Assembly: GCA_035534875.1 (NCBI GenBank)
Contig: DATLRB010000073.1
Span: forward strand, 35,961-99,960
Source: Candidatus Saccharimonadales bacterium
Lineage (GTDB): Bacteria > Chloroflexota > Dormibacteria > Aeolococcales > Aeolococcaceae
DNA: 64,000 nucleotides
Direction: 5' to 3'
This document shows positions 116 to 6,166 of the stretch, piece by piece; position 1 is the first letter of the stretch; every line of letters starts with the position of its first letter. Under the pieces are notes generated by a model. It was not told the DNA's origin. It worked only from the letters and a program-made list of their open reading frames with translations, and did not search any database. A program made the translations under genes and the position numbers.

Positions 116-192
116 GGGCGCATAGCTCAGTTGGTACGAGCGCTGCGTTGACATCGCAGAGGTCATAGGTTCGATCCCTATTGCGCCCACCA
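116..192 (+). tRNA. tRNA-Val (anticodon GAC), 77 nt with encoded CCA
   Basis: Hand-folded cloverleaf: acceptor GGGCGCA/TGCGCCC, D-arm GCTC-AGTTGGTA-GAGC, anticodon stem CTGCG/CGCAG with loop TTGACAT (anticodon GAC), variable loop AGGTC, T-arm ATAGG-TTCGATC-CCTAT, discriminator A, CCA. Confidence 0.85.
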
Positions 193-380
193 TATCGTCA
201 CGTCTCGGGAGATTGGGCCACCTGTCTCACGTCGTTGTGGCAGGGTGGAGGCGGGCGCAGGGCGTTCCCAGGGCTGGCCGCTGTCCTCGAAGTCATGGCG
301 CTGCTGAGTGGATTCCCGCCCGGACACGACCCGGCGCCGCGCGGCGAAGGTTATTGTCGGAAATGTCGCTAACCTTCCCG

Positions 381-394
381 GGACAATATTGTCC
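381..394. promoter_or_regulatory. Perfect 14-bp palindrome GGACAATATTGTCC upstream of the HNH gene (candidate operator near the -35 position)
   Basis: Seen directly in the sequence; the two halves are exact reverse complements. It lies about 24 nt upstream of a TACAAT hexamer. Confidence 0.3.
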
Positions 395-401
395 GTGCTG
401 T

Positions 402-423
402 TCGAACAGGTGTTTGGTACAAT
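402..423 (+). promoter_or_regulatory. SOS-box-like TCGAAC-AGGT-GTTTGG followed by a TACAAT -10-like hexamer immediately 5' of the HNH gene start
   Basis: Matches the mycobacterial LexA consensus TCGAAC-N4-GTTCGA at 10 of 12 defined positions. The TACAAT at 418-423 abuts the GTG at 424, so the real start may be the leaderless GTG at 430. Confidence 0.3.
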
Positions 424-1560
424 GTGTCAGTGGAAGCGTTCGCGATATCTGATGCGCGAGACCGTGTGAATGAGGCTGTCGATGCACTCGTGGACGAGTC
501 CATCGACGATTTCTCGACACACGCCCTGGCCGCGGACCTGATCGACATCCGGCGGGCGATCGATCGGCTCGAAGCAGAGTTCGTCAGCCGCTTGCACCGC
601 TTTCACAGCGATGGCGGGGCGCTGGCCGATGGCGGGGTGAGCACGGTTTCCTGGCTGCGATCTCACTGCGGCATGACGGTGAAGGAGGCCGCCTACCGCG
701 TGCACCTGGCGCGGACGCTTGGCGAGTTGCCGGCAACGCTCGACAGCGCCCGTGCCGGTCGGGCCTCGTTCACCAACGTGACCATGATCGCCCACCTCGC
801 CGAGGACGTCGGCGTGGAGCAGGTGGCGCCGCTCGAGAGCATCCTGGTGGGAGCGGCGGAGACGCTCGAGCCTGGTGCCATGCGTACCCTTACCCAAGCC
901 GTCCGGCTGCGGCTCGACCCCGACGGCGTGCTCGCCGATGACAACCACGCCCATGAGCGCCGCTGGTTCGAGTGCGAGCAGACGTATGGTGGCGTGTTCG
1001 TTTTGCGTGGTGAGCTCGATGCCGAAGGCGGCGCCCTGGTCAAGACCGCGATCGATGCGCTCAGTCACGGCATGAGTCGTGGAGAAACGCGGTCGGGCTC
1101 GCAGCGCCGTGCCGACGCGCTGGTCGATCTTGCCGCCACGCAGCTGCGCTGCGGTGTCCACCGCGATGTGCACGGGCAGCGGCCGCATCTCACGGTCACG
1201 GTGAGCGCGGACACGCTGCGCTCTGGCGCCGGTGCACAGCCAGCCGAGTTGAGCGGCGCGGGTCGGATCCATCCGGAAACCGCGCGCCGCATCGCCTGCG
1301 ACGCGGTGCGGACGGTGGTCACGGTCGCGTCGCCAGCTGATGGTTCGGCTTGGACGGCCATGAGCACGCGTGCGCTGCCTCTCTCAGTCGGACGGGCCAC
1401 GCGCATTGTCCCCGCACATATCCGCAGCGCGCTGCGCCTCCGCGACCATGGCTGCCGCTTCCCGGGGTGCGATCGCCCGCCCGCGTGGACCGATGGCCAC
1501 CACATCATCCACTGGTCGGACGGCGGCCCAACCGAACTCGACAACCTCGTCCATGGTTAA
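424..1560 (+). pseudogene. DUF222 / HNH endonuclease (actinobacterial 13E12-repeat-family type), 5' fragment (378 codons) truncated inside the HNH motif by the insertion
   Basis: The C-terminal ...RFPGCDRPPAWTDGHHIIHWSDGGPTELDNLV is the first half of an HNH motif (HH...N), and the ORF stops 3 codons later (HG*). The missing final-His segment (LCRPHHRAVHEQGW) is found in-frame at 5985-6107. The N-terminal 300 aa are DUF222-like. Confidence 0.8.
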
Positions 1561-1571
1561 TACAACCCCTT
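1542..1571 (+). repeat. Direct repeat copy A (CAACCTCGTCCAT-GGTTAATACAACCCCTT), the left junction of the cassette array
   Basis: A 13-nt core CAACCTCGTCCAT is identical in copies A, B and C, followed by GTTA-N-TACAACCCCTT-like sequence. Similarity extends about 20 nt upstream and 15 nt downstream. Confidence 0.75.
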
Positions 1572-1728
1572 ACGTAGTGGCCAGCTCAGATCGTCCTTGG
1601 TGTCCGACGATGGGTGCTCCTCCCCCCCGGTGCCCGGAGGTCGGCCCGCAGGCAGACACGCTGGTTGCGTCCATCGATGAGCCGCCTGCGACACTGGTCT
1701 ACTGTCACGAGCGCGGGAGGAAACGGCG

Positions 1729-2622
1729 ATGACAGTGTCCGCTTCTCCGGTTGAGCCGAAGGTGCTCTTGGACGGGCTCGCCATGGTCGAGTCACCTCGC
1801 TGGCACGACGGCCGGCTGTGGTTCGCCCACTGGGGTGCGGGCGAGATCCGGGCGGTGGATCTCGACGGCAACAGCGAGGTCATGGGCCATGGCCCGGAGG
1901 GCCTCGGTTGGACGATCGACTGGCTCCCTGACGGACGCCTGTTGGTTACTGGCGCGGAGCTCCTGTGTGTTGGACCCGACGGCTCGTCGGCCCCGTACGC
2001 AGATCTCACCGACATCAGTGAACGCGGTTGGAACGACATCGTTGTCGATGGCCGTGGCAACGTGTACGTCACTAGCATCGCCTTCGACTACCTTGCCGGC
2101 AAGCCTCCTAACGCGGGGATCATCGTCTTGGTGACCCCGGACGGCAGCTCGCGCCAGGTGGCTGCGGGTCTCAAGTTTCCCAACGGCATGGTCGTCACAC
2201 CCGACAACTCGACGCTGATCATCGGCGAGTCCTTCGCCGGTCGACTCACGGCCTTCGACATCGACGCTGCCGGGAGCCTGTCCAACCGCCGCGTGTGGGC
2301 CGAAGGCTTGGGCCCGGATGCCATTTGCATGGACACAGAGGGGGCGATCTGGACCGGGACGGGGGACACCCGGCTCTCTACTGGCCGCGACGATTCGCCC
2401 GGTGGGGCCGTCGCCCGCGTCCGGGAAGGGGGTGAGGAGCTGAACCGGGTTGAACACGACCGCTCGATATTGGGCTGCGCGCTTGGCGGCCCCGACCGTC
2501 GGACGCTGTTCCTCGTCGCGACGGAATGGCGCGGCACCGATCAACTGGACAACGTCCTTGCGGCACGCACCGGACAGGTGCTCATCGCCCCGGCACCGGC
2601 GTCAGGAGTCGGGTGGCCATGA
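1729..2622 (+). CDS. SMP-30/gluconolactonase/LRE-family (SGL) protein, cassette 1 gene 1
   Basis: 297-aa ORF preceded by the RBS GGGAGGAAACGGCG. Beta-propeller-like repeats with a WHDGRLWFAHWGAGEI motif typical of SGL lactonases. Tandem paralog of the next gene. Confidence 0.7.
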   Translation: MTVSASPVEPKVLLDGLAMVESPRWHDGRLWFAHWGAGEIRAVDLDGNSEVMGHGPEGLGWTIDWLPDGRLLVTGAELLCVGPDGSSAPYADLTDISERGWNDIVVDGRGNVYVTSIAFDYLAGKPPNAGIIVLVTPDGSSRQVAAGLKFPNGMVVTPDNSTLIIGESFAGRLTAFDIDAAGSLSNRRVWAEGLGPDAICMDTEGAIWTGTGDTRLSTGRDDSPGGAVARVREGGEELNRVEHDRSILGCALGGPDRRTLFLVATEWRGTDQLDNVLAARTGQVLIAPAPASGVGWP

Positions 2623-3476
2623 GCGGGTGCTCAGTGAGCGACGATGACGGAATGAACGAGACACGCGTCGTGGTTGACGGCTTGGGCTTTCCGGAGTCGA
2701 CGCGGTGGCGCGACGGACGTATCTGGCTGTGCAACTGGGGTGCCGGCGAGGTACTGGCTCTGAGCATCGAGGGCGAGCGCGAAGTGATGGCTCGTCTCGC
2801 ACCGCATACCATTCCGCTGAGCATTGACTGGCTTCCCGACGGGCGAATGCTCGTCGTCGACGGGCCAGGAGGTAGGCTGCTGCGTCAGGAGCCGGACGGA
2901 ACGCTGGACATCGTGGCGGATCTCACCGCCTTCGGCAGCCCGCCGTTCAATGAGATCGTGATCGACGCAACCGGGAACGCGTATGTGAACGGTGGACCGG
3001 GAGTTATCCGTGTGCAGCCGGACGGGGGCATGCGCAAAGTCGCCGACGGCCTGCCCTGGCCCAACGGTATGGCGCTGGTCGACGATGGCCGCACGCTCGT
3101 CGTCGCTGATTCGCGCGCCGAGCAGCTCGTCGCGTTCGAGGTGGCGGACGACGGGACCCTCTCAGACCGCCGCGTCTGGGCCGACCTCGAGCACGCGCCC
3201 GACGGCATCTGCGCGGACGCAGACGGAGCTGTGTGGGTTGCGAGCGTTCCCGGTCAGCGCTGTGTGCGGGTGCGGGAGGGCGGCGACGTGCTCAACACGG
3301 TCGCCGTTGATCGAGGGTGCTTTGCCTGCATGCTCGGAGGCGAGGACGGTACGACGCTATTCATCGCGGCCGCCGAATGGCACGGGATGGAGGCGGCGAT
3401 GAGCGACGGGCCCGATTGGACCGGGCAGTTGCTCGCGGCGCCCAACCAGCCTGCACCGCACGCAGGCCACCCTTAG
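2619..3476 (+). CDS. SMP-30/gluconolactonase/LRE-family (SGL) protein, cassette 1 gene 2
   Basis: ATGA overlap with the upstream gene. The protein MSGCSVSDDDGMNETRVVVDGLGFPESTRWRDGRIWLCNWGAGEV... is collinear and about 40% identical by eye to the upstream paralog. Confidence 0.7.
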   Translation: MSGCSVSDDDGMNETRVVVDGLGFPESTRWRDGRIWLCNWGAGEVLALSIEGEREVMARLAPHTIPLSIDWLPDGRMLVVDGPGGRLLRQEPDGTLDIVADLTAFGSPPFNEIVIDATGNAYVNGGPGVIRVQPDGGMRKVADGLPWPNGMALVDDGRTLVVADSRAEQLVAFEVADDGTLSDRRVWADLEHAPDGICADADGAVWVASVPGQRCVRVREGGDVLNTVAVDRGCFACMLGGEDGTTLFIAAAEWHGMEAAMSDGPDWTGQLLAAPNQPAPHAGHP

Positions 3477-3532
3477 GCGCCCCGCCCAGCTCCACCTACT
3501 CCGCTGGGGCGTCGCGGGACGACGGCCCCTGG

Positions 3533-3562
3533 CAACCTCGTCCATCGTTAAAGCATCCCCTT
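3533..3562 (+). repeat. Direct repeat copy B (CAACCTCGTCCAT-CGTTAAAGCATCCCCTT)
   Basis: Same 13-nt core. In the HNH frame it reads G-N-L-V-H-R-stop. Confidence 0.75.
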
Positions 3563-3670
3563 TCCAAGCCCGCCGAGTGGGATCTGCTTCGGCCAGATCG
3601 CGACCGAGGTCGCCGGCGCTGCCCCGGTTCGGTAAGTACCATTGGACGCGTGGCTGACGGTTTCGTGCGG

Positions 3671-4165
3671 ATGCCTGGGGAGGGCGATCGGATCTCCCCT
3701 GCCATGAAGCTCAAAGTGGGCGACAGGCAGTCCGAGTGCTTCTCCGTGTTCGAAGTGGTCGACATCGGGCCAGGTTTCGACGTCGGGGCGCACCTGCATC
3801 ACAACGCCGAGGAGATGTTTTACGTCCTGGAGGGCGAGCTCGACTTGCTCGCTTTCGAGCCGCGGGTTCGGACGCCCACCGACTGGCAGCACTGGGAGTC
3901 TCACAGCGGGGCCAAGGTGGCTCGGGGCCGCCCGGGCAGTTTCATGTTCGTCCCGCACGGCTGCCCGCACGCTTTCGCCAACCCGGGCCCTGGCCTGGCT
4001 CGGATGATCTTCCTCGTTGCGCCGCCCGGTCACGAGCATTACCAAAAGGAGCTTGCGGAACTGGTGGTCAGAGCTACCGGCCCCTTGGACGAGGCGATCG
4101 GGCAGCTGCGGGCCCGTTACGACATCGAGCAACTCACCCCCCAGGTGGTGCCCAGGCCGCGCTAG
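3671..4165 (+). CDS. Cupin-domain protein, cassette 2
   Basis: Cupin motifs G(x)5HxH(x)3,4E ... GxxxxxPxGxxHxxxN are present as GAHLHHNAEEMFYVLEGE ... FMFVPHGCPHAFAN. The start could also be the ATG at 3704. Confidence 0.6.
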   Translation: MPGEGDRISPAMKLKVGDRQSECFSVFEVVDIGPGFDVGAHLHHNAEEMFYVLEGELDLLAFEPRVRTPTDWQHWESHSGAKVARGRPGSFMFVPHGCPHAFANPGPGLARMIFLVAPPGHEHYQKELAELVVRATGPLDEAIGQLRARYDIEQLTPQVVPRPR

Positions 4166-4486
4166 TTGGTCGCCGAGGAGAGCCCGCTGGGAGCTGTTGC
4201 CGGGCTGATCCGCGACCCCCTATGGCAGCGCCAAGCGCGCCGAGTAGACGCAGGTAAGACGCTTCTCGGTGCACCCGGAGCTCAGGACAAGCTGCTAGAC
4301 GCCCTCGTCGAGAGACCACTGGCAGACAGCACGATGAACGTGCGTCGACTAGGCTCGTCTGGCCCGGTGGCCACTTGCGCCTTACATCGACTCCGGGGGG
4401 TCCCTCCAGGATCGCCCACCAACAACCAACACGACAGAGGTAGGGCGCGTAGACCAACGGAGGGCGTGGTTTCCAACAGTTACGGC

Positions 4487-4516
4487 CAACCTCGTCCATT
4501 GTTAGTACAACCCCTT
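4487..4516 (+). repeat. Direct repeat copy C (CAACCTCGTCCAT-TGTTAGTACAACCCCTT)
   Basis: Same 13-nt core. In the HNH frame it reads A-N-L-V-H-C-stop. The element-side 17 nt match copy A at 15 of 17 positions. Confidence 0.75.
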
Positions 4517-4732
4517 CCCAGGGGCCACATGAGATCAGCGACGGCTCGCTAGTTTTGGTGGATGACGCTTGAGCAGGTAGCCGTTGCTCAAGACGGTCAG
4601 AGGCCGGGCACAGCCGGGAGCCGCAGCCACGACCTGCCGCCGAGATAGCTCCTTCGTTTGCGAGCTTCGAAGGGGCCAAATCACGGACGAGCTCGGCGCT
4701 CGCTTTTACGAATGCGTGCCTCGCAAGATATC

Positions 4733-5101
4733 ATGTCAGACATGACCGAGGACCGCGACCTGACCGAGTTGCGCCGTGGGGTGCTCGGTCCGTGCGTCCT
4801 CGCTCTCCTGGAGGAGCGCACCCGGTTCGGACTGGAGCTGGTGCGTGACCTGGCGTCCGCAGACAGCCTGCTGACGAGCGATGGGACCGTCTACCCCCTA
4901 CTCAACCGGATGCGCGACGCGGGGTTGGTGACCAGCGAATGGCGGGACGAGTTGAGAGAGCGGCCTCGCCGCTACTACGCGATCACCGCGGCGGGTCGGA
5001 GGCACCTCGCCGCGTTCCGGGCGGAGTGGCCCCGGTTCTCAGCGACCGTTTCCGAGGTATTGCGCAGCCCGGCTTTCGCCGTCGTGAGTGACGACAGATG
5101 A
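4733..5101 (+). CDS. PadR-family transcriptional regulator, cassette 3 gene 1
   Basis: 122-aa winged-helix protein with the PadR signature ...GYEL..L....GTLYPLL.RLE..G... (here GLELVRDLASADSLLTSDGTVYPLLNRMRDAGLV). A 13-bp palindrome CATGTCAGACATG overlaps its start codon. Confidence 0.7.
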   Translation: MSDMTEDRDLTELRRGVLGPCVLALLEERTRFGLELVRDLASADSLLTSDGTVYPLLNRMRDAGLVTSEWRDELRERPRRYYAITAAGRRHLAAFRAEWPRFSATVSEVLRSPAFAVVSDDR

Positions 5102-5976
5102 GCAGCGTCATGGAAAGAGACGACCGCGTACGAGCCTACCTCAGTGAGCTCGAGAGAGAGCTGCGAGTCTTGCCGGCACCGCAGGCTACCGAGCTGATGG
5201 AGCAAATCAGCGCCCACCTCGACGAGGCCCTGCCCCGGGGCAGCGCAGAGGAGACGGTGGCGGCGGTGCTGCGCCGGCTCGGCTCCCCCGCGAAACTGGC
5301 CGCTGAAGCGAAAACCACTGAGAGGCTCGACGAAGAGGCGCCCGAGATCGCCCGTTCGAGGTCGCCCCTTCGGCACCGGTACGGCTGGCGGGGCTGGGGC
5401 GCGATCGCGGCTGGCCTGGCCCTAGGGTGCGTCCTGACGACGTTGCTCGGGCTGTACATCGCAACGCCGAGCCTCTCTATCGGCGGTTCCTCAGCGTGGT
5501 GGTACCCGCAGGACCAGGCTCGGGCGGTCTATTCGTCGACGCTCGGCGCAGCCGCAACGACGGTTCCTGCTCGCCGCGCGCAGTGGCAGGGGTTCGTGGT
5601 CGAGGTGGAGAACCCAAGCAGCTCGGCTCAGACCGTCCTGGGCATGGCCTCTTCCACGGACAGCCCCACCGGCTTGGTCGGCATGGCCAACGTCACCGAC
5701 GTCAAGGTCGGCGTGTCCACGTACTCCAACTACACCGGCGCGGCGCCCAACTTTCAGAGCATGCACTTCACTACCGGGCAGACCATCCAGCCAGGCCAGT
5801 ACCGCTTCATCAGGGTGATCTGGATGACGGACCCGTGCAGCCTGGCCAATGGTTCCGGCTTAACCGGAACTGCCCAGGTGAACCTGGAGGTGCAGGTGGG
5901 CTGGTTCTCGCGCGAGGAGAACCTGACCCTCGATCCCGGCTGGCAGCTCTCGCTTGGGCTCGACTGTTCCGGCTGA
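5098..5976 (+). CDS. Membrane protein with an N-terminal DUF1700-type (HAAS-like) helical domain, the usual PadR-associated partner; cassette 3 gene 2
   Basis: ATGA overlap with padR. The N-terminus YLSELERELRVLPAPQATELMEQISAHLDEAL resembles DUF1700. A predicted TM helix (WGAIAAGLALGCVLTTLLGLYIA) is followed by a Ser/Thr-rich extracytoplasmic domain. Confidence 0.55.
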   Translation: MSSVMERDDRVRAYLSELERELRVLPAPQATELMEQISAHLDEALPRGSAEETVAAVLRRLGSPAKLAAEAKTTERLDEEAPEIARSRSPLRHRYGWRGWGAIAAGLALGCVLTTLLGLYIATPSLSIGGSSAWWYPQDQARAVYSSTLGAAATTVPARRAQWQGFVVEVENPSSSAQTVLGMASSTDSPTGLVGMANVTDVKVGVSTYSNYTGAAPNFQSMHFTTGQTIQPGQYRFIRVIWMTDPCSLANGSGLTGTAQVNLEVQVGWFSREENLTLDPGWQLSLGLDCSG

Positions 5977-5984
5977 TCCTCCCC

Positions 5985-6107
5985 TGCGGGAGCACGACCC
6001 TCGCGAACCTGGTCTCCCTGTGCCGGCCGCACCACCGCGCGGTGCATGAGCAGGGTTGGCGCCTCCATGTCGCTGACGGAGTTGCCGTCGTGGAGCCGCC
6101 GCCCTGA
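5985..6107 (+). pseudogene. DUF222/HNH endonuclease 3' fragment (final HNH histidine segment), separated from its 5' part by about 4.4 kb
   Basis: Encodes CGSTTLANLVSLCRPHHRAVHEQGWRLHVADGVAVVEPPP-stop. STTLANLV is a diverged duplicate of PTELDNLV at the end of the 5' fragment, and LCRPHHRAVHEQGW completes the HNH motif. Confidence 0.7.
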
Positions 6108-6166
6108 CGATCGTGCGACGCGGCAGGCAGCGTTTCCGGCGAGCGATCCTTGACCAGTACCGGCTC

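Follow-up and report, generated by a model that had tools for sequence, protein, structure and literature searches.

A tandem array of gene cassettes splits a DUF222-HNH gene at the probable target site of a large serine recombinase family

Most described actinomycete integrative (conjugative) elements (AICEs) use tyrosine integrases and target tRNA genes. The prophage-like element phiRv1 of Mycobacterium tuberculosis resides within REP13E12, a gene of the DUF222/HNH type, and has a serine recombinase, Rv1586c, and a 12 bp att core, GGTTGGCCGTGG (PMC3986857; PMC9317374). In staphylococci, elements of the staphylococcal cassette chromosome (SCC) and pseudo-SCC type depend on large serine recombinases (LSRs), the Ccr proteins, and accrete in tandem at one site inside a conserved gene, rlmH; a direct repeat is found at every boundary, and recombinase-less members lie beside recombinase-bearing ones. 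Here we describe a locus with likenesses to each of these systems: a DUF222-HNH gene, present in multiple copies in an uncultured soil bacterium of Dormibacterota type, in a 64-kb stretch of contig DATLRB010000073.1 (64,000 nucleotides, hereafter the window), which is split by three small gene cassettes. We put at about 0.7 the probability that the cassettes together make up a composite insertion, unable to move on its own, at the attB of an LSR family that targets the Asn-Leu codons (AACCT) in the HNH motif of DUF222-HNH genes.

The insertion is most directly visible from an intact allele. A search with the two HNH pieces joined as query returned hundreds of orthologues of 400-410 amino acids with DUF222 and HNH domains (HNH paralogues are numerous), and among them one protein of 404 amino acids (P0121) that covers the query completely and differs from the joined pieces at a single residue. 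The encoding contig, from a sister metagenome (L076), matches the window on both sides of the insert: positions 79-1482 are 99.86% identical to window positions 148-1551 (1,404 nt) and positions 1468-1633 are 98.2% identical to 6000-6165. It is colinear with both HNH pieces and both outer flanks, and the pieces are joined seamlessly (empty site, cgacAACCTGGTCtccctg; left junction of the window, cgacAACCTCGTCcatggtta; right junction, gcgAACCTGGTCtccctg). A first-pass annotation, made from the letters of the window, had proposed that the open reading frame (ORF) at 424-1560 and a downstream remainder are parts of one HNH gene interrupted at an attB-like hotspot; both the Pfam assignments and the intact allele bear this out, and we conclude that the locus is an insertion into such a hotspot within one HNH gene. 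That annotation had also named the contrary possibility, that the pieces derive from different paralogues brought together by rearrangement and that the repeats at the junctions are generic sequences of the kind known as repetitive extragenic palindromes (REPs) or miniature inverted-repeat transposable elements (MITEs). The abundance of HNH paralogues would fit, as would the diverged copy of upstream codons that precedes the right-hand piece; the intact allele, being colinear with both pieces and both flanks, refutes it, and we give it next to no chance.

The position of the crossover can be read from the same comparison. The ORF at 424-1560 is native up to 1543-1547, its last three codons and stop being insert-derived: its C-terminus reads ...DGGPTELDNLVHG and the stop lies three codons past ...DGGPTELDNLV. 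The inserted block, 4,463 bp from 1543 to 6005, sits exactly between ..GAC/AACCT and AACCT/GGTC..., where the HNH motif has its Asn-Leu codons (a slash marks a boundary here and below). Because the sixth position is polymorphic (G/C), strand exchange is placed inside AACCT. The first-pass annotation had let the gene resume in frame at 5985-6107. The remainder of the motif is indeed present (NLVSLCRPHHRAVHEQGW..., within a native 3' piece that reads NLVSLCRPHHRAVHEQGWRLHVADGVAVVEPPP and ends in a stop codon), but the native part begins only at 6006, and 5985-6005 is a diverged HNH-like arm, CGSTTLA, that closes the third cassette. The right-hand piece is thus preceded by its own diverged copy of about seven upstream HNH codons (CGSTTLA/NLV); junctions 2 and 3 likewise carry diverged upstream codons (GTTAPG/NLV and PTVTA/NLV). 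Three other loci (L002, L007, L017) have arrays closed by this same 3' piece. No compositional anomaly of the insert was detected. Coordinates are collected in Table 1.

Table 1. Features of the split DUF222-HNH locus, with positions counted from the first letter of the window.
Feature	Position	Strand	Basis
tRNA-Val(GAC), context only	116-192	+	ARAGORN, Rfam
5' piece of the HNH gene (left arm of attB, B)	424-1560	+	Pfam DUF222 (E 1e-32) and first half of HNH
Junction 1 (attL type): core AACCT and P' half-site (27-mer), then a leader of ~160 nt up to the SGL start codon	1543-1569	+	
Cassette 1: two SMP-30/gluconolactonase-like (SGL) genes (1729-2622, ~2643-3476)	1543-3533	+	Pfam
Junction 2: AACCT and variant P' half-site (..CGTTAAAGCATCCCC)	3534-3560	+	
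Cassette 2: cupin gene (3671-4165), then ~320 nt non-coding and arm ..PTVTA	3534-4487	+	Pfam Cupin_2/Cupin_1
Junction 3: AACCT and P' half-site, then GAGATCA inverted repeat (~4524-4547)	4488-4514	+	
Cassette 3: PadR regulator (4733-5101) and HAAS-domain membrane protein (5098-5976)	4488-6005	+	Pfam
Right junction: core AACCT (6006-6010) and native 3' piece of the HNH gene (right arm of attB, B')	6006-6107	+	

Between the HNH pieces lie five Pfam-supported genes (SGL, SGL, cupin, PadR, HAAS) in three small cassettes, the same three blocks that the first reading had recognized. The boundaries are marked by a 27-nt repeat, AACCTCGTCCATnGTTAnTACAACCCC, which in the window is confined to the left junction and the two boundaries between cassettes. 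The sequence CAACCTCGTCCATNGTTA likewise occurs three times (1542, 3533 and 4487, all on the + strand), against a chance expectation of 0.08, and none of 100 shuffled sequences reached three; a repeat search of the window extended the repeat to 49 nt. In the HNH frame its copies translate as D/G/A-N-L-V-H-G/R/C-stop, as had been stated. Three copies in 64 kb, all co-oriented and all at junctions, are not what ubiquitous REP or MITE sequences would give, and confidently scored copies are co-oriented in related arrays too.

Of the two recombinase families profiled, one tyrosine and one serine, the window contains no member (tblastn and HMM searches), in agreement with the earlier statement that it lacks an integrase, and the cassettes are therefore non-autonomous. 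At related junctions a recombinase is present. The last unit of a three-junction array (L070/L071) comprises a rolling-circle Rep and an LSR of 466 amino acids (Resolvase, Recombinase and Zn_ribbon_recom domains), whose start codon lies ~30 nt from ..GCGAATAGTGGCC/AACCT/GGTACTGCTCTGCCGACAC, reading A-N-L-V-L-L-C-R-H-P-H. Homologues of this LSR are 65-83% identical, and every readable one has the same junction layout (L077, L078, L079/80, L081/82, L083). With the element L086/87 these are the loci at which an LSR stands beside the junction; in eight sequence contexts the start codon falls 25-35 nt from an X/AACCT/HNH-3' junction (NL..LC..HH).

That the association reflects targeting is best seen where one recombinase occupies several genes, or where both ends of an element are visible. 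An identical LSR (P0270) is found in three different HNH genes, with right arms NLDPLCSHHH.., NLVCLCQLHH.. and NLQRLCGPHN.... A complete 8.8-kb LSR-TrwC element (L080) splits a DUF222-HNH gene at D/N-L with both ends visible, and a complete 5.2-kb LSR-Rep element does the same in a metagenome-assembled genome (MAG) of the Frankiales (L086). Autonomous elements at this junction occur in Dormibacterota, Frankiales and Microthrixaceae and are of two types, LSR with rolling-circle Rep (L070, L077, L086) and LSR with TrwC relaxase (L078-80). The family is of actinobacterial or Dormibacterota type and ~30-34% identical to mycobacteriophage serine integrases; a look-up of the Aquihabitans member (P0327) found no database record. 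The recombinase beside such junctions is thus an LSR, which makes phiRv1, cited as a precedent by the first-pass annotation, an apt one.

An annotated "recombinase family protein" on the Mycobacterium avium plasmid pS2b (L084, NZ_CP076860.1, 8900-14300) is 54% identical to the Dormibacterota LSR. It heads a module of Int, replication initiator and FtsK-SpoIIIE with an intact, dyad-symmetric attP, which stands unrecombined before the LSR gene as GGGGGTATATTAGCAGCATCT-AA-CTTTTGCGCCATTGGTAATACCCC. The module forms an AICE-like element, in a cultured pathogen, whose target may be an HNH-type site.

The LSR elements give meaning to the 27-mer. Its layout is AA, 10 nt, CGTTAATAC (CGyTAATAC) and AACCCC, while the arm that separates the core from the LSR start codon runs (GGGG)CATAyTArCG, 10 nt, AA; compared as mirror images, the two match at 13-14 of 25 positions (shuffling p ~0.007). 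The L086 element has the same arm layout (AATCTCACGCGTTCGTAAGACACCCC). From this mirror symmetry we conclude that the 27-mer probably consists of the central dinucleotide AA and the P' half of an LSR attP of ~52 bp, which we read as GAGGTCATACTAGCGAATAGTGGCC-AA-CCTCGTCCGTCGCTAATACATCCTC; AA is probably the central dinucleotide of the AACCT core. The three window junctions would then be of attL type, a target-like arm followed by P'. All three carry P', mirroring the P arms of the LSR elements, and none carries an LSR-type P arm; the right junction of the window is a B-like relic followed by B'.

The reading that we favor, a composite insertion at the attB of this LSR family, would run as follows. 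The family inserts its own elements where HNH motifs have their Asn-Leu codons; the three window cassettes would descend from such elements, or parasitize them, and would have accreted at the HNH hotspot in the manner of SCC and pseudo-SCC elements at rlmH. Any present mobility of the cassettes would require an LSR in trans, and truncation of the HNH protein (..NLVH-x-stop) would be a by-product of the P' sequence. The first-pass annotation had gone further and proposed serial site-specific integrations: insertion at an attB-like site stands, but a one-by-one order is an interpretation, and the 4.46-kb block could be one composite.

Several observations weigh against this account. The window lacks a recombinase of the profiled families, and nothing turned up for the rest of this genome. 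Its left arms are brief remnants of HNH-like sequence, which gives all internal junctions the look of attL and the right end that of attB. According to PMC3783163, canonical LSRs recombine only attP with attB, and by that rule attL-like and attB-like pairs lie outside the canonical reactions. The arrays need a relaxed LSR, or nested integrations followed by deletions, or another enzyme. Relaxed behavior is known among LSRs from Ccr, TnpX and TndX. A search for circular cassette contigs found none. The phiRv1 attB may involve the same codons, as the opposite-strand reading of its published 12-bp core (CCACGGCC/AACC) would suggest.

The wider distribution of the junction was surveyed with the pattern AAYCTSGTSCAYNGTTANNNCANCCC, applied to one genome for each of 185,579 species. 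It matched 18 genome loci, of which 15 are labelled Candidatus Dormibacterota, and a further 36 metagenome loci; viral contigs gave no match, and a looser pattern found only low-GC chance matches there. The consensus of the repeat is AACCTCGTCCATCGTTAATACAACCCC, and a profile of the 27-mer added degenerate copies, all of which, where the score was meaningful, are co-oriented with the exact matches. Arrays hold three to five co-oriented copies (five each in L054 and L066, three each in L003, L007, L033, L052 and L060). All told, the junction delimits co-oriented arrays, with as many as five or more different cassettes, at about 50 related loci, nearly all of them Candidatus Dormibacterota. Other genomes contain different cassettes at the site, which the first-pass annotation had named as a sign of cassette dynamics. 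The 28 non-redundant cassettes span 0.38-8 kb (median ~1.7 kb) and encode hydrolases, SnoaL-like proteins, TetR regulators, methyltransferases and GNAT acetyltransferases, together with defense-type proteins (TIR, OLD-like AAA_21+TOPRIM, Mrr). On a complete Dormibacteraeota chromosome (L003, OY970355.1, 1266-7604), the cassettes behind an interrupted HNH pseudogene carry genes for a TIR-domain protein, an OLD-like AAA_21+TOPRIM nuclease, a DUF4760 protein and an alpha/beta hydrolase; arrays can therefore hold genes of anti-phage type.

Two comparisons define the unit of exchange. Where one cassette has differing left neighbors, identity ends at position 0-3 of AACCT (four independent pairs); where one left cassette has differing right neighbors, divergence begins inside or just past the 27-mer. 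The exchangeable unit is therefore AACCT, 27-mer, leader, cargo and left arm. A census of left arms over 73 unique junctions gave at least 5 native HNH arms, 42 HNH-like relics, 10 AAA+-like arms and 16 others, about a dozen of the HNH-like relics being ~75 nt long with the conserved start ..LNLHLRIDGHH. Right ends of arrays are always a target-like (B-like) arm followed by B'.

The ten AAA+-like junctions share a left arm of 40-100 nt ending ..CCCGATTGTTCGCAGGACGCAnCTGGATGGCC/AACCT (L017:656, L036:1849, L042:1396, L051:2184, L054:241 and 9057, L065:6947, L066:9438, L067:2571, and L070, reverse complement, 1445 and 4076). When translated, this arm looks similar to the part of ComM/Mg-chelatase-like AAA+ proteins around Walker-A (NLLMTGPPGT.., KMMLARAF.SLLP; GPPGxxK.MLARA..LLP), and it may be the relic of a second target gene. 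These c-type left arms were also considered as LSR P half-sites and rejected, having no TAGCGA motif at the right distance and the look of an AAA+ Walker-A relic.

The arrays admit two further explanations. In the first, successive complete LSR elements entered attB sites of HNH type, among them HNH fragments that earlier elements had brought along, and subsequently lost their integrase genes and P arms by deletion, for example through homologous recombination between direct HNH 3' repeats, so that the block is immobile debris; it may also have come in whole, through allelic replacement via the HNH flanks. This course of events keeps to canonical attP x attB chemistry. It accounts for attL-like internal junctions whose arms go back to different HNH paralogues and to the relic of an AAA+ gene, and for the many degenerate P' copies; L070, with LSR-P/AACCT/B' at the array end, would be an uncollapsed stage, and REP13E12 paralogues of M. 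tuberculosis are gene conversion hotspots (PMC13061034). However, many clean deletions would be needed, each leaving compact units of one or two genes; the LSR-Rep elements read here have no internal HNH landing pad; and internal P/AACCT/B' remnants occur in none of the arrays. We regard both the nested origin and the subsequent collapse to debris as quite possible, if on balance not probable.

The second explanation is a cassette platform comparable to that of integrons or SCC, in which each unit of P', leader, cargo and B-like arm is a mobile circle that integrates at a site regenerated at the array end (B-like arm/AACCT/B'). Units are swapped as discrete modules with boundaries at AACCT, and cassettes are compact, with ORF stops 10-60 nt before the next core. 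Conservation is much stronger in P' and leader than in the left arms, about 12 junctions possess the conserved ~75-nt arm, and right ends are invariably B-like arm and B'; the HNH 3' relic beside a tRNA-Phe integrase has three different last cassettes. Against these stand the missing circles, cargo genes without orientation bias (32 versus 23, from a crude gene caller), left arms that are not LSR P half-sites, and the fact that attL-like x attB-like is not among the known LSR reactions; module exchange could, moreover, be mimicked by homologous recombination in the 27-mer and leader. It is rather unlikely that Dormibacterota, and perhaps some Actinomycetota, possess a serine-recombinase platform in which single cassettes with P' and B arm move at the HNH Asn-Leu codons and regenerate an attB-like site, giving growing arrays; and we are just as doubtful of the catalysis it calls for, by an LSR acting in trans with relaxed site rules or by some other enzyme. 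If true, the platform would be a functional analogue of the integron on another recombinase class, working by an attL-like x attB-like reaction outside the accepted LSR rules.

In outward form the arrays do resemble integrons: small, diverse cassettes stand in a platform-like series with a recombination repeat between them (one that contains AAC...GTT), and the cargo is of defense and small-enzyme type. A classical integron, or an island of a tyrosine recombinase anchored on the neighboring tRNA, is nonetheless very improbable. No IntI-like gene is present in the window. There is no attC-type folded site, the repeat being conserved in sequence rather than structure (74% pairing versus 72.8% in shuffled sequences, with no covariation); the conserved part lies at the start of the cassette and not at its end; cargo shows no orientation bias; and the associated recombinase is of serine rather than tyrosine type. 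A tRNA does adjoin the split gene, and a tyrosine integrase lies beside the arrays of L050, L070 and L073, but the array is bounded by HNH halves rather than tRNA repeats, and the integrase belongs to a tRNA-Phe island family found with or without arrays. We considered the integrase of L050 as the array enzyme and rejected it on this ground, its island lying at a conserved chromosomal site.

The tRNA-Phe island begins with this tyrosine integrase (L050 960-2700; L069 9700-11560; L070 9750-11450; L073 9750-11600). Some 160 nt past it, on the opposite strand, stands the same HNH 3' relic (AACCTGGTACTGCTCTGCCGACAC), whose neighbor varies: an LSR element, a PQQ-repeat cassette or what looks like an uninterrupted fragment of an HNH pseudogene. 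The tRNA-Phe site is a second array hotspot adjoining an unrelated integrase.

The tRNA-Val next to the split gene, which the first-pass annotation had brought into its description, proves incidental. Four related contigs (L001, L016, L056 and L076) match the window only from 148, inside tRNA-Val, and lack the complete tRNA. The 45 nt at its 3' end (148-192) form the repeat of a separate island polymorphism, of tyrosine-integrase type, in related strains: in L001 (3224-3415), L056 and L076 (1-123) the 45-nt remnant is preceded by other DNA (sigma-70, DUF4232, a 211-aa gene), and a separate island therefore lies in the tRNA-Val of those strains and is absent from the genome of the window. At least three population states exist: island with filled HNH gene, island with empty HNH gene, and no island with filled HNH gene. 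One of these contigs (L016, DATKQX010000163.1) belongs with L069 (DATKQX010000126.1) to the MAG GCA_035532495.1, labelled Candidatus Saccharimonadales and with a GC content of ~65%. One contig of this MAG matches the window at 99.9% identity. A tRNA-Phe island integrase on another shares 94% identity with its L050 counterpart, and its closest contexts match other metagenome contigs from peat and soil, not Saccharimonadales. GCA_035532495.1 looks either taxonomically mislabelled or wrongly binned.

Some further details concern the cassettes and their junctions. The first cassette of the window ends in a short HNH-like arm, GTTAPG (~3511-3533), and its arrangement, HNH-SGL-SGL, recurs in L001, L016 and L056. 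The leader of roughly 120 nt behind junction 1 contains a hairpin-like sequence, ATCGTCCTTGGTGTCCGACGAT, and window positions 1572-1660 are 86% identical to 2598-2694 of L067, where the leader belongs to a cassette placed elsewhere in its array, with similarity stopping before the SGL genes; judging by sequence, leaders seem modular. Junction 2 is 90% identical to a junction of another locus (L008:4800) and is followed by the inverted repeat GCCGAG..GGGATCT..CTTCGGC. An inverted repeat, GCCGCCGAG-TGAGATCA-GCGTCGGC, stands ~10 nt past most 27-mers (window 3572-3594 and 4524-4547, and ~30 other junctions) and could be a putative protein-binding site for a directionality factor, Rep or a regulator; helices in it and downstream of the 27-mer had no covariation support. 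A scan of the insert for promoters and terminators gave a single promoter-like site, before PadR (4705-4734), not above chance; an exact look-up of the cupin protein found no database record, and an Rfam scan found no match besides the tRNA.

Set beside phiRv1, the locus shares a target that is a multi-copy DUF222-HNH gene split by the element, with (in the autonomous relatives) an LSR encoded beside the att site. The phiRv1 core, on the other strand, ends GGCC/AACC, and the same 8-mer is found here at the boundary of P arm and core (..TGGCC/AACCT), which suggests that the two sets of sites are homologous. In contrast to the prophage-like phiRv1, the inserts here are stacked cassettes of one or two genes without an integrase, in another phylum. 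A plasmid search with the HNH protein for a mycobacterial copy of REP13E12 yielded matches in Rhodococcus and Arthrobacter only. The likeness to SCC lies in the traits given at the outset, and the LSR-bearing member of L070 stands last in its array. However, target, att sequence and cargo are without homology (there is a DUF222-HNH gene here, and neither Ccr nor rlmH); the rlmH frame is preserved by SCC whereas the HNH gene is truncated; and the cassettes are far smaller, keeping one attP half-site and a target-like arm. With AICEs the autonomous relatives have in common the combination of LSR with Rep, with Rep and FtsK/SpoIIIE (pS2b) or with TrwC, while the window cassettes have no Int, Rep or Tra module. 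The first-pass annotation held an integrase-less multi-cassette array at such a site to be undescribed as a system, which overlooks composite SCC and pseudo-SCC islands, some members of which lack a recombinase. By that analogy, integrase-less stacking is already known in kind; what is new is the phylum of the host, how generally the HNH motif is targeted, and the half-site cassette architecture.

These findings give DUF222-HNH genes of the REP13E12 type a role, concrete as well as general, as landing pads for serine integrases beyond M. tuberculosis, in Dormibacterota, Frankiales and Microthrixaceae at least. They also describe a natural LSR family whose attB is short and anchored on codons (N-L of the HNH motif) and whose 52-bp attP can be read; att pairs of this kind are useful for genome engineering. 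Arrays of half-site cassettes, with their small enzymes, regulators and defense-type genes (TIR, OLD-like, Mrr), may be one of the ways in which genes are passed around in this phylum, which is known from metagenomes only. Should single cassettes turn out to be mobile, the strict attP x attB rule for LSRs would need revision.

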